Position numbers and translations under genes: made by a program. Positions 47,663-55,350 of a stretch of DNA of 64,000 bases are shown piece by piece. Location of the stretch: positions 1,920,001-1,984,000 of the forward strand of contig OY970323.1 in assembly GCA_963716985.1 (NCBI GenBank), given 5' to 3'. Each line of letters begins with the position of its first letter. Within the stretch, counting starts at the first letter, position 1. Source of the DNA: an uncultured bacterium. GTDB lineage: Bacteria; Chlamydiota; Chlamydiia; Chlamydiales; SM23-39. The notes below the pieces were generated by a model. That model ran no database searches, was not told the DNA's origin, and saw nothing but the letters and a program-made list of their open reading frames with translations.

Positions 47663-47764
47663 CTAGTGCTCTGTCACCCTTTAATTTTAGGATAAATTGA
47701 CTTGAGTTTATGCCGACCGTTGCCAAACTTATAATCCTAAATTTTAACTATGACAGAGCACTAG
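47663..47764. mobile_element. CTAG hairpin MITE, copy 3
   Basis: Inserted in a repeat unit; sister repeats show a single CTAG-equivalent site, supporting the duplication. Confidence 0.93.
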
Positions 47765-49324
47765 TAATGCCTTTTAAAGCAAATTCTCGCACAAACTCAT
47801 TAGGGATAGTGTTGGCAAACATGATTGCCCTATCAATCTGTCCTTGCTGAACTAAAACCTCGGTAATGCGTTCTAAAGCCGATCCTCGCTCGGACTCATC
47901 AGAGATAGTGTTAGCAATCTCGATCGCCCTATCAATCTGTTCTTGCTGAACTAAAGCCCGGGTAATGCATCCTAAAGCCGATCCTCGCCCGAACTCAACA
48001 GAGATAGTGTTGGCAAACGCGATCGCCCTATCAATCTGTCCTTGCTGAACTAAAGCCTTGGTAATGCATCCTAAAGCTTTTCCTCGCAAGAACTCATTAG
48101 GGATAGTGTTGGCAAACGCGATCACCCTATCAATCTGTCCTTGCTCGGACTCAACAGAGATAGTGTTGGCAATCTCGATCGCCCTATCAACCTGTCCTTG
48201 CTGAACTAAAGCCTTGGTAATGCCTTTTAAAGCAAATTCTCGCACGAACTCATTAGGGATAGTGTTGGTAAACATGATTGCCCTATCAATCTGTCCTTGC
48301 CAAACTAAAGCCGTAGTAATGCGTTCTAAAGCCGATCCTCGCTCAGACTCAACAGAGATAGTGTTGGCAATCTCGATCGCGCTATCAATCTGTCCTTGCT
48401 GAACTAAAACCTCGGTAATGCGCTCTAAAGCCGATCCTCGCTCGGACTCAACAGAGATAGTGTTGGCAATCTTGATCGCGCTATCAATCTGCCCTTGCTG
48501 AACTAAAACCTCGACGATGCATCTTAAAGCCTTGGTAATGCATCCTAAAGCTTTTCCTCGCAAGAACTCATTAGAGATAGTGTTGGCAATCTCGATCGCC
48601 ATCTCAATCTGTCCTTGCTGAACTAAAGCCCGGGTAATGCATCCTAAAGCTTTTCCTTGCCCCGACACACCAGAGATAGTGTTGGCAAGGGCAATCGCCC
48701 TATCAATCTGTCCTTGCTGAACTAAAGCCGCGGTAATGCATTCTAAAACTTTTTCTCGCTCGAACTTATCAGCGATAGTTTGCGCGCGATCGATATCTTT
48801 GTAAATTTTTGTTAACTCAAAAACATCCTCAAAGAAATCGGGGATGCATAAACCTTTAGACAGTTTTAAACTTTGTAAGACTTCATCCGGTAAGGTTTTT
48901 AAGACATTTAAAACGATCTCTTTCTGCTGCAAAATTGATGTTTTCATGACCAGTAGATTTACTGAGCCGGAAACTATTTTAACTCCATCAATTTTTAAAA
49001 GTGTTTCCTTTTGCTCGGGAGATAGGTTTTCGCCTAGATTTTCAATTAGAAATTTTATAAAACAGTTTATTGAAGACGACTCTTTAGTGCCAACACTGGC
49101 TATCGCATTCATTTTCCATTGCTTGCTTGTGCAGCAGACTGCTGTCATACTCTCTTTAGGCAAAAAGCTAAAAAGATGTTGCAGCAATTTTGGTGGAAAA
49201 TCATCTGTTGTTGCCGCTTCTTCAGGGATAGCTATTTGTTGTGCTCTAGTTGCTAATGTAATTGCTGTCATGGCTTTGCCAAGCTCCGATAAATTTTTTT
49301 TTAAGAAATTGTGTCATTTTTGCT

Positions 49325-49530: not shown

Positions 49531-49727
49531 TTTTGGATACAAGGAGCTTAAGAAGGTATGCCCGAGCAATATGCTTCAAGCAAACGTTTCGGTTCAAGTC
49601 ATGACGCCCTCGCAAAGCGAGGGGCTTGATAGTTGTGAGCAGCCCTATGGGCTGCCAAGGAACTCCTAACAACTTTTTTTACCAAGCCACTTGGACTTGC
49701 CTGGATATGGTAGTGAGCAGCCCCAAG

Positions 49728-49992
49728 CTGGAGTTTGGACTAATTTCGCGTCTGAATCTGGTACAAAATCAGTTCAAATCTTGATTTGTGCTCTATAGCG
49801 ATTTCTGTCGGAAAACCATATTGCTTGATTTATTCGGGGGTTTGAGAAAATTGTCCAAAAATCTCAAACCCCCAGATAATTCGACTGCAACATCCTTTGT
49901 TGCTCTTGTTCTGCAGGTTAATCATAGGAGATGACGTTTAATTTAGACTGATTTCTGCGCCTCCTGGTCCCAGAAATTAGTCCAAACTCCAG
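49728..49992. mobile_element. 265-bp MITE, 20-bp TIR, 6-bp TSD CCCAAG
   Basis: CTGGAGTTTGGACTAATTTC...GAAATTAGTCCAAACTCCAG. Confidence 0.88.
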
Positions 49993-50034
49993 CCCAAGGG
50001 CTGCAGATGGCCTAACGAGCTTTAATTTTAGATG

Positions 50035-52390
50035 TTAAAACGAACCCTCTTCTTCATTTTGACTGTCTAAGCGCTCCTGATCTTTGATGTATGCTCGGAT
50101 TTTCTCTACTTCAAATCCAACGGTTGATATTGCATACCCTCGAGCCCACAACTGTTCTCCTGTGAAATTTCTCTTTTTACCACGAAATTGACGAGCAACT
50201 GCGATTGCACTTTTTCCTTTTATGTACCCTATCACTGATGCGGCTGGATACTTGGGAGGAATTTGAATCAACATGTGGACATGGTCAGGCATCATTTTCC
50301 CCTCCATAATTGTGCATTCTTTTTGACGAGCCAATTCTCGAAAAACGGGACCTAAAAATTTTCTTACTTGACCATACAATTTCTCTTTCCTGCATTTTGG
50401 GATAAATACCACGTGGAATTTGCAATCCCACCTGGAATGGGCTAAACTATTATATGACGATGTTGTATCGTTGGTGAGTAGAGGAGCGGATTGCTCCGCT
50501 TCCCCCTCCTCAGAACCAGGACTTGCAGGTTTCCCGCATCCGGCTCCCGAACAGTCCTTTTAGGTTTTGATTACCTTAGGAGTTCCTATGATGCATTTGA
50601 TTTTCCACTTCATTGGAAAGCCCACTTTTTCCAGAACTTTCTCGAATTTCTCCCAACTCATTTTCTTTCTGCCACCTTTCCTGTTGATCCATTTGAAGAT
50701 AGCTCTTTCGCATTGGAAGATAAATCCGTTTACCGCTCTAGAGTTGTCGGTCACTGCATGATAGTTGATCCACCCTTTGATGATTGGCAGTATCTGTTGA
50801 AACATTATCAAGGTTTTCATGGCTTTATTCTCTTTCAGAAATTTTGATAATCCCTGAAGTTTCGAGTGCTTCCGATCTCCTCTGCTGCGGACTTTTAATC
50901 TCCAGAAGTTCCCTTTCTGCGCTTTTTCCCAGAAGAAGGTAAATCCCAGAAATTTGAAAACAGGCAGCTTTTGTTTCTTGGCCGCCATTTCTGCTATTCT
51001 TTTCGATCCCGAGGAGTGCAGATGCGACTTGTCTTCGTGAACCGCAAGTCCATATTTCTGCAACCTTTGGGTAAACGCTCTATAGAACCTTTCCGCATCT
51101 TCACTGCATTCGAATACAAATACCATATCATCGCAGAAACGAATCGGAAAGATCTTTCCCTTGAGATATGTTCGAATGGATTCTATCCAACTATCCACCA
51201 CTTCATGTAGGTAGATATTTGATAAAATCGGTGAAGTGACCGATCCCTGTGGGCATCCGACTAAATTCTTTTGCACTACCCCATCGTTTGTGATGGTTTC
51301 TGCTTGCAACAGAATATGTATCAGCCTCAGGAATTTTGGATCGTTGATTTTCTTCTGTAGTATAGCCTCCATTTCCATATGTGGAATAGAGTTAAAATAC
51401 TTCCGAATATCAATCTCCAATAGAGCGCCATCTTTGCACTCGTATACTGCTTGGTGCAAAGCGGTAATAGCATCATGGCAGCTTTTCCCGGGCCTATATC
51501 CAAAAGAACTCGGCAGAAAGAGCGGTTCATAGATTTTGTTCAAAATCTCTCCCGCTGCCATCTGCACCAATTTGTCCTCTATGCAGGATATTGCCAGAGG
51601 TCTTTTGCCTCCATCTGCTTTGGGTATTTCAACTATCTTTGATGGTTGTGGCGCATATTGCGCCCGATGCACTTTCGCAGCGAGCATTCGGAGATTTTCC
51701 TCCAGATTTTTGCCATATGCTTCTTTTGTTATACCATCAATTCCTACAGCTTTAGTTCCATCAAGCTGTGCAAATGCTCTCATCAGCATTTCCTCGTTGA
51801 TAAGATGTCCCAGATTATTGAACACCAGATCATGATTTCCTGCCGAAAGATCTCCTATACGATCCAGCTTCATTGACACTGTATATCTGTCTTTGCTGTG
51901 TACAGACATTGTTTCCACCTTTTCGTTCGTTTCTGTTCTATCCACCCTTTGCTCCCCGATCGTTACTCGGTTCCTCGCTACTATGGTGGACTCCGCCATC
52001 CTTATCCCATCTTTGCAGTCTTACGTTCATGGCGCTTGAACCACAAATACTCCCTTCGGAGAGCAATAAGGACTTCCCAAGTTCCGTCACACTTCTCTAC
52101 AAGCTCGCCAATGCTTAATATCCCGGTGCTTGATGATCGCAGGGTTTCGCCATTTTGACCCGCTTCCCATCTGTTGCCTGCTCCTAATACGAAAGTTTCG
52201 GCTTGCACGATATACCTCTCGAGACTTAACGCATTCACCTCACGGTTTTGGCTCGAATGTTTCGCTATCTACGCTTCAGCTCTTTTGTTACCTCCGGAGT
52301 TGCAAGATTCGCTACATAATGTGGTGGCTATCCACTTTTTATGCCTGGACTTTCACCAGTAGAAGTGCGCAGCTTCTCTTGGCGCACCAT
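50035..52390 (-). CDS. tnpA: IS200/IS605 Y1 transposase, spliced: exon 1 = ATG 52388-52390, exon 2 = 50035-50469
   Basis: Joined MDTTSSYNSLAHSRWDCKFHVVFIPK; HUH motif DHVHM; LWARGY; YIKDQ. Confidence 0.88.
50470..52387 (-). ncRNA. Group II intron (1918 nt)
   Basis: 5' GTGCG; domain V GAGCCGGATGCGGGAAACCTGCAAGTCCTGGTTC; domain VI hairpin; 3' AC. Confidence 0.92.
50560..51909 (-). CDS. ltrA: Group II intron reverse transcriptase/maturase, no endonuclease domain
   Basis: KAVGIDG, IPKADGGKRPL, SFGYRP, GCPQGS, RFCDD, FLGF and GWINY motifs. Confidence 0.93.
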   Translation of the reverse strand: MSVHSKDRYTVSMKLDRIGDLSAGNHDLVFNNLGHLINEEMLMRAFAQLDGTKAVGIDGITKEAYGKNLEENLRMLAAKVHRAQYAPQPSKIVEIPKADGGKRPLAISCIEDKLVQMAAGEILNKIYEPLFLPSSFGYRPGKSCHDAITALHQAVYECKDGALLEIDIRKYFNSIPHMEMEAILQKKINDPKFLRLIHILLQAETITNDGVVQKNLVGCPQGSVTSPILSNIYLHEVVDSWIESIRTYLKGKIFPIRFCDDMVFVFECSEDAERFYRAFTQRLQKYGLAVHEDKSHLHSSGSKRIAEMAAKKQKLPVFKFLGFTFFWEKAQKGNFWRLKVRSRGDRKHSKLQGLSKFLKENKAMKTLIMFQQILPIIKGWINYHAVTDNSRAVNGFIFQCERAIFKWINRKGGRKKMSWEKFEKVLEKVGFPMKWKIKCIIGTPKVIKT

Positions 52391-52392
52391 AT

Positions 52393-52440
52393 TCTATACT
52401 CCTTTTGGTTGACTCGCTAAGCCATCCAAAGGAGTATAGA
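52393..52440 (-). promoter_or_regulatory. Stem-loop sequestering the tnpA ribosome-binding site
   Basis: TCTATACTCCTTT...AAAGGAGTATAGA pairs over AAGGAG just before the ATG. Confidence 0.65.
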
Positions 52441-52535
52441 TATGTTTGTCGTTTCCTTCTTTACTGAATTTTAAGGCCAAGCCTTGAGAGTCCACTGGTC
52501 AAACCAGTGGCTTACCTATTGAGAGTTATTTTTTC

Positions 52536-52988
52536 ATAGATCCTAAGCAGAGGAACCAACACTACCCATTGATTGATATTATCGCAGTTGTTGTCATGGA
52601 CATTATTTGCACGGCTGACGATTTCGTTGCCGTTTACCGATGGGCTTGTCATCGTGGTGAGTGGCTTAGCTCAATGGGATTATGCCTAAATGAAGTTCCC
52701 TCTCATGACACCATGAATCGAGTATTCCGTTTGCTTGATCCGAAGCACTTTAACGAATGTTTTATGCAATGGGTTCGTACGATTGCAGCAACCATTGAAG
52801 GTGTCATTGCCATTGATGGGAAAACTCTCTGCAATTCAGGAGATGAGTTTCGACAGACAAGTCCACTGCACATCGTCCATGCATTTGCCGCCGAGAATCA
52901 TCTGCTGCTAGGGCAACTAGCCACCGACGCAAAATCAAATGAGATTACGGCAATCCCAGAACTGCTTAAGATGCTGACCATGCATTAA
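52536..52988 (+). pseudogene. ISAs1 transposase N-terminal fragment
   Basis: PSHDT..RVF, IAIDGKTL and KSNEITAIPELL; truncated. Confidence 0.85.
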
Positions 52989-53633: not shown

Positions 53634-53999
53634 ATGAAGAAAGAACGGCCTGGTGAATTGCACCAGAAAATCAAGCGGCTACGAACATCCAGAGATGCGC
53701 TGAAGCATCACAATTATGAAAAAACCCAGCAGAACAAAAAACTTCGCGACAGGAATGTAGAGATTGCTGAAAGTCGCGATCATTGGAAAGATCGTAATAA
53801 AGAGCTTGACCAGCAAAAGGAAGGCCTGGAGCAACAAATACAAGTTGCGCAGGAGAGATTACTGGAGGCTCAAGAGAAGATACAGACTGCAAAGAAAGAG
53901 ATAGAGCGCGAGCGAATACGAGCTGATGAGGAACGCAGGCGCGCAGATCAACTCCAAACTGAAATTGAAGCAGCTCGAAAAAAAAAACAGGGGTCTTGA
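53634..53999 (+). CDS. Coiled-coil ORF A of the unclassified IS
   Basis: Charged heptad-rich 121 aa ending at the A10 run. Confidence 0.7.
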   Translation: MKKERPGELHQKIKRLRTSRDALKHHNYEKTQQNKKLRDRNVEIAESRDHWKDRNKELDQQKEGLEQQIQVAQERLLEAQEKIQTAKKEIERERIRADEERRRADQLQTEIEAARKKKQGS

Positions 54000-55350
54000 A
54001 AATTTGATTCCAAAGATGGGAGAGAAAGCCCCGCGTGGTTGGTATCCCATCTTGATGATCATCATGTGCATTAGGCTAGTGCTCCAAGCTACTATTTCAT
54101 TTCGCGCAGCTCCTAAGGCGATTCATATTGCATTTTCTCAATTCGATGCTGTCAAAGATCAACCGATTCCAACATACAAAAGCATCAGCAGATGGCTAAC
54201 GCAGATAGGTCTCTATAAGTTGAATTGCCCGAAAGAACAAGCAAATGACTGGGCACTAGTCATTGACAATTCAGTCCAAATTGGTACTCAAAAATGTCTT
54301 GTAATTTTAGGAATGCGTCTGAGTAAGTTTCAGAAGGGAAAAGCACTAACTCTCGAGGACATGGAAGTACTGATTATAGAGCTCCATGATCAGTCCAACG
54401 CGAATATTGTCTGCAGGGCATTGGAGAATGCACAGAAAAAAATTGGAAAGGCTGCTATGGTATGCGCTGATGATGGTTCAGATCTCCGAGGCGGAATTGA
54501 ACTGTTTTGTCAGAAGCATGGTGCTGGCCGCGTTTTTGACACTATTCATAAAATTGGCACTTTTTTAAAAAAGATTTTCGAGGATGATTCGGAATGGCAA
54601 GCTTTTTCAACAGCTGCGGCAGCTGCCAAGAATAAGATGCAGCAAACACAGGCAGCTCATCTCATGCCACCCAACCAAAGGACGAAGTCTCGATTCCTCA
54701 ATATCGAGATTCTTGCGCGATGGGGAATTGACATTATGGTTGCCATAGATACGCCGAACCATCCTGACAAGGATCTGCTCGAACAATACTGTGGCTGGAT
54801 TCGTCAATATACAGGGCTCATTGAAAGATTGAAACAATTTGACCTCATCAGTCGGAAAACTAGACAGTATATCCGCGAGAATGGAGTGAGTTTTAGCACA
54901 GGAGAGCAGATAGATGCATTTTTGGAAGAGGAAATGAAGTCCTTAAATTTTAATGCAGAAGCATGCGAATACGCTGGAGCGCTGATAGATTTCTTCTACG
55001 AACAGTCGAAAGTCGTCCCTTTTGGACAAACCTGGCTTGGTTCAAGCGAAATCATAGAATCTCTATTTGGAAAATTGAAAAGTCTCGAGAATGACCAAAG
55101 CAAGGGAGGCTTCACGCCGCTTATTCTGGGAGTAGCTGCGTGCGTCGGTAAAGTGGATATTGCTTTGGTGAAGGCAGCCATGACACATATAAAGATAAGT
55201 GATGTCGACACGTGGACAAGAGAACAGGTCGGATCGACGCTACTTTCCAGAAGAAGGAAAGCTTTGGCGTTCTGGAGAAAAAAGAATTTTCAAAAAAATA
55301 TTGTACACGAATCGGCTGGAGCCGTCAGGAGCGAAGCGATTGGTTTTTAG
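53926..55350 (+). CDS. Putative DDE transposase, ORF B
   Basis: IDNSVQIG, ADDGSDL, DTIH and SSEIIESLFG motifs. Confidence 0.75.
   Translation: MRNAGAQINSKLKLKQLEKKNRGLENLIPKMGEKAPRGWYPILMIIMCIRLVLQATISFRAAPKAIHIAFSQFDAVKDQPIPTYKSISRWLTQIGLYKLNCPKEQANDWALVIDNSVQIGTQKCLVILGMRLSKFQKGKALTLEDMEVLIIELHDQSNANIVCRALENAQKKIGKAAMVCADDGSDLRGGIELFCQKHGAGRVFDTIHKIGTFLKKIFEDDSEWQAFSTAAAAAKNKMQQTQAAHLMPPNQRTKSRFLNIEILARWGIDIMVAIDTPNHPDKDLLEQYCGWIRQYTGLIERLKQFDLISRKTRQYIRENGVSFSTGEQIDAFLEEEMKSLNFNAEACEYAGALIDFFYEQSKVVPFGQTWLGSSEIIESLFGKLKSLENDQSKGGFTPLILGVAACVGKVDIALVKAAMTHIKISDVDTWTREQVGSTLLSRRRKALAFWRKKNFQKNIVHESAGAVRSEAIGF

Follow-up and report, generated by a model that had tools for sequence, protein, structure and literature searches.

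What is a mobile intron doing directly behind the start codon of a transposase gene: is it a partner of the insertion sequence (IS) that hosts it, or an invader for which this position is one landing among several? The question is raised by a window of 64,000 nt (positions 1,920,001-1,984,000 of contig OY970323.1, assembly GCA_963716985.1) from an uncultured Chlamydiales bacterium of the SM23-39 lineage, whose IS-rich genome consists of one contig of 2.07 Mb. All coordinates below are window positions unless marked as genome positions, and both the intron and the IS200 gene tnpA that it interrupts lie on the minus strand. The feature is a mobile group II intron in sense orientation, which separates the ATG of the IS200 tnpA from the AAC that forms its codon 2. 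A sequence-only reading of this DNA had placed an intron directly after this ATG, and the placement was borne out by an Rfam match (RF02005), by the RVT_1 and GIIM domains encoded in the intron, and by the Y1_Tnp domain downstream. We consider it likely, with good though not full confidence, that an intron which invades insertion sequences landed here in IS200 between tnpA codons 1 and 2, and that its main effect is to brake IS200.

The 5' side of the insertion reads AAGGAGTATAGAAT-ATG|GTGCGCC on the minus strand, with the ATG at 52390-52388 and the first intron nucleotide at 52387. The intron covers 50473..52387 (1915 nt, GTGCG...CTACTCACC), as given by Rfam and by comparison of its copies, with boundaries taken from 20 empty sites. 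It opens with the conserved GUGYG 5' end (GTGCG at 52387). The Rfam search proposed in the sequence-only reading indeed returned a group II intron: RF02005, the model of group II domains D1-D4, matches over its full length at 52353-52112 (81.2 bits, E 4e-21, cut-off 49 bits), and under relaxed thresholds the D5/D6 model RF00029 gives a full-length match that ends at 50473, with 38.9 bits, 1.1 below its cut-off of 40. Domain 5 comprises 34 nt (50513..50546, minus strand; Rfam match and fold). Domain 6 follows at 50473..50512 (minus strand), and its predicted fold has four pairs below a bulged branch A at 50479, the seventh nucleotide from the 3' end.

Within the intron, an open reading frame (ORF) at 50560..51999 (minus strand) encodes a protein that measures 479 aa if its first ATG is used. 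The start at 51909 is better placed and is preceded by a ribosome-binding site (RBS). Profile searches identify reverse transcriptase (RT) and maturase domains (RVT_1, 3.7e-32; GIIM, 2.3e-6), and the protein scores 296.2 bits on TIGR04416, for which the cut-off is 300. Domain searches found no endonuclease domain in it. The RT active-site motif (51100-51130, minus strand) reads FCDD where YADD is usual; the intron has nonetheless clearly moved recently. Among intron proteins of solved structure, the best matches are 7uim, 5hhl, 5hhj and 6ar1 (1.4e-33 to 3.5e-30, against 2.5e-29 for LtrA), which we take to be of class IIC, an assignment that is explicit for GsI-IIC only and presumed for the others.

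The exact 3' end decides what the spliced gene encodes. Three other insertion sites of the same intron in this genome (described below) exist as empty copies (7, 8 and 5), and all 20 read ACG|AAT or ACG|AAC. Because every one of them keeps AAT or AAC as exon, the intron is 1915 nt long and ends at 50473; the boundaries cannot slide, since the flanking bases differ. This end agrees with three independent facts read from the sequence, namely the end of the Rfam D5/D6 match, the position of the branch A at the canonical distance of 7 nt from the end and the N-termini of homologous transposases. The predicted spliced junction is ATG|AAC (...GAATATG|AACGATACA), and the predicted product, M-NDTTSSYNSLAH, has 146 aa and the N-terminus M|NDTTSSYNSL. 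It is 79-88% identical to uninterrupted metagenomic homologues of 146 aa, which start with MDETTSSYNSL, MNETTSSYNSL, MNKTTSSYNSL, MNEITSSYNSL or MNVTTSSYNSL.

The sequence-only reading had instead proposed an intron of 1918 nt that ends in ...CACCAAC at 50470, with a junction ATG|GAT and a TnpA of 145 aa. The tnpA frame is open under both boundaries, and an ending in AAC has the attraction of following the textbook rule that group II introns finish in AY. We nevertheless regard this anatomy as almost certainly wrong: it is 3 nt too long, as the AAC that it assigns to the intron is retained as exon, in this form or as AAT, at 20/20 empty sites, the Rfam D5/D6 model stops at 50473, the branch A would stand 10 nt from the end rather than 7, and the homologues have 146 aa and start with MN.. 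or MD... The open frame and the HUH and Tyr motifs that the same reading had attributed to TnpA stand, and only the length changes. The motif rule was 3 nt off, and it is the empty paralogous sites that gave the exact ends.

Exon 2 of tnpA (50035..50472, minus strand) comprises codons 2-146 and the stop codon, and profiles and alignment identify it as a Y1/HUH transposase with an HVH motif and a catalytic Tyr. It matches Y1_Tnp (PF01797; 113.8 bits, 6.8e-33) and NF033573 (127 bits, cut-off 55), and H64-V65-H66 and Y113 are invariant in 17 aligned TnpA sequences. When the intron is removed in silico, tnpA becomes an intact gene in which the HUH and Tyr motifs are present. Since the intron separates codon 1 from codon 2, full-length TnpA needs splicing. 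Read from its ATG, the unspliced sequence yields only a 20-aa peptide, and the 29 in-frame open codons upstream of exon 2 contain no start codon. An internal GTG opens an ORF of 125 aa that is devoid of the conserved N-terminal strand of TnpA, and annotation pipelines are likely to call tnpA as this truncated gene. Read-through of stop codons on unspliced RNA (50560-50562 and 50472) would fuse the intron protein and TnpA, which is probably a coincidence.

Is the intron tied to IS200? The search for further copies suggested in the sequence-only reading was fruitful: the genome holds five copies, with differences at 2 or fewer of the 1915 positions. Two lie in two identical copies of the IS200, and the other three lie, also in sense, in three other transposase genes. 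More precisely, the site between codons 1 and 2 of the IS200 tnpA is filled in 2/2 full copies, and its ligated exons, AAUAUG|AA, allow six contiguous pairs (one of them G-U) with the intron motif CGUAUU. The second site, near the 3' end of a 474-aa ORF without family match, is filled in 1/8 copies (UACACG|AA, three contiguous pairs); the third, at about codon 288 of an IS4/Tn5-like DDE transposase, in 1/9 (GUUACG|AA, four contiguous pairs); and the fourth, at about codon 137 of an IS66-family transposase, in 1/6 (UAUACG|AA, five contiguous pairs). Because three of the five copies reside in other transposase genes, the intron is not bound to IS200; on the evidence of these sites, it is an invader of insertion sequences in general rather than an IS200-specific partner, and the start-codon position is one landing among several.

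The four distinct sites have in common an A at -3, a G at -1 and AA at +1/+2. The candidate exon-binding site 1 (EBS1) named in the sequence-only reading, CGUAUU (52191-52186), which pairs with AAUAUG through one G-U, is confirmed: it falls in the D1 hairpin loop that the Rfam model assigns to EBS1. Rfam alignment and site comparison place it in the loop UUCGUAUU (52186..52193, minus strand), in which two U adjoin it on the 5' side and can stand opposite the AA at +1/+2 of the 3' exon; the loop fits the corrected 3' exon better than the one given by the earlier boundary. One unoccupied target lies in the window itself, towards the 3' end of the multicopy 474-aa ORF (GTACACG|AATCGG, 55303..55315, plus strand, break at 55309|55310). 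This ORF (53926-55350, plus strand) has 8 genome copies, one of which carries the intron near its 3' end. It matches no family in Pfam or NCBIfam and probably encodes the transposase of an IS family not yet described.

Two other regularities of placement were considered and dropped. Introns of group IIC (class C) insert directly behind a stem-loop or terminator and have a short IBS1. At the IS200 site a strong hairpin ends 5 nt upstream of the insertion; two of the three other sites lack one, and the remaining site shows no more than a weak fold. Hairpin targeting in class C style was therefore rejected as a general rule, a strong adjacent hairpin being present at the IS200 site only. By GC skew, replication starts at about 0.10 Mb of the genome and ends at about 1.20 Mb, and 4/5 copies are co-directional with the replication fork (the exception is at 1.12 Mb); five copies are too few for a claim of replication-strand bias, and we set it aside. 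The genome contains fifteen D5/D6 matches, ten of them above the Rfam cut-off, which belong to several intron families; about ten come from other introns.

These observations suggest how the intron came to its present place. The site would have been chosen through pairing of the ligated exons AAUAUG|AA with the loop UUCGUAUU, with a single G-U, and the overlap with the start codon would be incidental. Retrohoming primed by the nascent strand is established for introns without an endonuclease, and the present intron, in which no endonuclease domain was found, probably enters DNA that is transiently single-stranded by reverse splicing, with a nascent strand as primer. The intron is complete, and its near-identical copies indicate recent mobility, and hence splicing-competent RNA in at least one context.

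Once in place, the intron would allow IS200 TnpA to be translated from spliced mRNA only. The leader would add a second layer. A stem-loop at 52388..52444 (minus strand) is predicted by folding to pair the RBS AAGGAG (52404-52399), the ATG and the intron-binding site 1 (IBS1) AAUAUG (52393-52388); the 142-nt leader has a z of -4.9 and its last 70 nt fold with -28.4 kcal/mol. A ribosome at the AUG would cover IBS1, and the hairpin would bury both, so initiation, hairpin and exon binding should compete. The sequence-only reading had pointed to an RBS held in a hairpin, and the strong fold agrees with this; it is no special feature of the present locus, since the two-hairpin left end with a sequestered Shine-Dalgarno sequence is described for Salmonella IS200, an element of about 700 bp that carries tnpA only, in the text available from PMC4513863, and is thus an ordinary IS200 trait. 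The two elements share this leader architecture, and the one in Salmonella has no intron. The intron would then act mainly as a brake on IS200, to which the hairpin that hides RBS and IBS1 would add, and the most likely net effect, by analogy, is the one proposed for RmInt1 in ISRm2011-2.

Several points weigh against this account. The matches to RF00029 (38.9 vs 40) and TIGR04416 (296 vs 300) both stay slightly below the curated cut-offs, and the RT motif is FCDD instead of YADD. No EBS2 was identified when intron 6-mers were compared with positions -7 to -19 of the four 5' exons, a search that gave only AU-rich, non-specific candidates. The genome holds 175 unoccupied AATAYGAA sites, so the 8-nt pairing alone is insufficient for target choice and other determinants must exist. 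Incidental landing alone does not predict that occupancy should be 2/2 in IS200 and 1/6 to 1/9 elsewhere. Finally, splicing in vivo is something we infer from the sequence, and for RmInt1 the available parts of PMC3035460 and PMC4238363 give in vivo exon ligation of only 0.07%; by analogy, the cell may in effect produce no TnpA.

The high occupancy of IS200 is also one of the arguments for a closer association, in which IS200 and intron move by peel-and-paste as a unit of ~2.66 kb and TnpA is gated by maturase-dependent splicing, amounting to an intron-IS symbiosis of group II type. The two copies are identical over intron and IS200 and lie at two loci with unrelated unique flanks, and no intron-less copy of the studied IS200 is left in the genome. 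In both, intron position 1887 is a derived A, against G in the three other copies (predicted D6 stability -21.7 vs -24.4 kcal/mol), and this shared A makes the two IS200-resident copies sisters. Retrohoming of the intron from one IS200 into an empty second copy would account for all of these facts just as well. In addition, three of the five copies are elsewhere, which speaks against specificity for IS200, no relative of either element shows the pairing in the sets searched (see below), and the window copy has a miniature inverted-repeat transposable element (MITE) in its right-end region. Composite transposition and IS200-to-IS200 retrohoming explain the sister copies equally well, and joint mobility remains the minority reading, one that we hold to be unlikely overall. 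Its detailed form, a 2.66-kb composite that transposes as single-stranded DNA, with TnpA switched on only after maturase splicing and with initiation and 5' splice-site recognition competing over the same 20 nt, seems to us improbable.

The sequence-only reading had favored such a composite. Its dependence of TnpA on splicing is supported by the anatomy; the partnership with IS200 in particular does not hold, given the three copies in other transposase genes; and the suggestion that the intron rides IS200 transposition is possible, the identical composites fitting retrohoming just as well. Of the intron-less IS200 copies for which it had proposed a search, no full one is left in the genome. 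A diverged, intron-less and truncated 5' relic (genome 74910-75084, minus strand) starts ATG ACA ACA TCG at the homologous place. It is cut after codon 19 and continues with GTGCGACACGAGG (GTGCGAC...; genome ~75 kb), which resembles the 5' end of another intron and gave no Rfam match.

If intron and IS200 were regular associates, the pairing could be expected elsewhere, and we found no sign of this in the sequences searched. Among 80 metagenomic relatives of the IS200 (58-74% identity), the start is uninterrupted in 78 and none has an upstream match to a D5 pattern, which is our own and was checked only on the D5 of the present intron. The 20 relatives with at least about 1.5 kb of upstream sequence gave no Rfam matches there at gathering thresholds. 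Sixty related genomes, most of them draft assemblies from which repeats may be missing, contained no DNA match to the IS200 and three short, partial matches to the intron, of 47-120 nt. Relatives of the intron protein reach 34-46% identity in representative genomes; in 400 other genomes of the phylum they reach at most 45% over partial matches and 42% over a near-full-length match. Finally, over 33 loci with related intron proteins, a TnpA is adjacent at none of the 30 non-self loci and at one of the three own copies.

At the other extreme, the insertion might have silenced the IS200 and left both composites as inert relics. This would be in keeping with the 0.07% of exons that RmInt1 ligates in vivo (as given in the available part of PMC4238363), with an IBS1 buried in a hairpin of -28 kcal/mol, with the weaker D6 of the IS200-resident copies and with the MITE in the right end of the window copy. 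Against it, tnpA and the intron ORF are both intact, the HUH and Tyr motifs have been kept, and the two copies are 100% identical, which suggests that at least one of the two elements was active recently. We think it very unlikely that the locus is dead in this sense, and return to the reading of an IS-invading intron that brakes its host.

The host carries several hallmarks of the IS200 group. The IS200 extends from 52529 to 49597 and measures 747 nt without intron and MITE, as established from two composites and a 3' fragment. Its left end (52388..52529, minus strand) consists of the 5' untranslated region and the ATG (52390-52388), which is tnpA exon 1; identity between the composites starts at 52529. 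A subterminal hairpin, CCACTGG-TTTGA-CCAGTGG, seen in sequence and fold (52492..52510, minus strand), lies 19 nt from the left end. The right end (49597..50034, minus strand) finishes with ...GGGCGTCATGACT at 49597 and has hairpins at 49639-49655 and 49607-49623. The Y1 transposase is the only gene, subterminal hairpins occur at both ends and there are no terminal inverted repeats, all features of the IS200 group. Members of this group also insert beside a short specific target without duplicating it; here both copies have ATAAC at the left border, with TAAC in the relic, and the genome contains no empty IS200 site that would fix the ends. The flanks of the two composites and of the fragment (three right ends, two left ends) are unique and unrelated, so the IS200 inserted at at least three places.

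In the window composite the right end is interrupted by the MITE block (49722..49992, 271 bp, no strand assigned), which has perfect terminal inverted repeats of 21 nt and a CTTGGG duplication and sits in the loop of a right-end hairpin, GCAGCCC-TTG-GGGCTGC; the other composite is without it. A 93-nt end of this MITE is found at about 10 places in the genome, with 99-100% identity. A third IS200-type tnpA (genome 55054-55381, minus strand) is frameshifted and intron-less, and has no DNA-level similarity to the studied IS200. The IS200 left end lies 40 nt upstream of a transposase fragment (52569-52988, plus strand; DDE_Tnp_1_assoc and DDE_Tnp_1) in which the first ~20 profile positions are missing, and the IS200 probably inserted into this gene. 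Further along, 47748-49271 (minus strand) encodes a protein of 507 aa whose N-terminus is F-box-like and is accompanied by many TPR-like repeats of ~36 aa (QGQIDRAIEIANTIS...); the protein is eukaryote-like and typical of amoeba symbionts.

How does this arrangement compare with known ones? RmInt1 is not known to carry an endonuclease domain. Its residence in ISRm2011-2 of Sinorhizobium meliloti is the best-studied parallel for the brake: splicing there restricts how much transposase is expressed and, through this, how far the IS spreads, according to the available parts of PMC3035460 and PMC4238363. Both cases have a group II intron in sense within the transposase region of an IS; in the present one the host is an IS200 and the site is at the start codon, neither of which is true of RmInt1.

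The introns of Thermosynechococcus elongatus come close in a different respect. The available text of PMC2882425 describes three F4 introns at one conserved site in ISEL1 (IS200 family), F3 twintrons and introns lodged between start codons, and presents preferential insertion into other mobile elements as a strategy of proliferation. Those introns are ORF-less and mobilised in trans, whereas the present one encodes its own RT. No paper that we found describes an intron immediately behind the ATG of an IS200; outside that search lay the figures and supplements of PMC2882425, which could place the ISEL1 introns. The reverse transcriptases of T. elongatus reportedly carry an endonuclease domain.

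A structural analogue is the IStron. Elements such as CdISt1 join a self-splicing group I intron to genes of IS200/IS605 type (as described in the available part of PMC4227781), and share with the present case the physical linkage of a self-splicing intron to a transposon of the IS200/IS605 family. In an IStron the ribozyme stands at the end of the element and the whole chimera is spliced from host transcripts, which makes insertions harmless, whereas here only the intron would leave the IS200 mRNA and the IS200 would remain in any transcript of its host gene. Identity with an IStron was ruled out, as the present ribozyme belongs to group II and is located within the IS, 142 nt inward of the left end.

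The concept of an intron in an IS whose splicing limits the transposase is thus already in print, and the locus is a clean if fairly ordinary case of one mobile element inside another. Through it, an IS200 from a chlamydia-like bacterium joins the known IS hosts of group II introns. As a well-resolved natural example, with the 5' splice site, the start codon and the RBS hairpin all within about 20 nt, it could also serve the study of competition between the ribosome and exon recognition.

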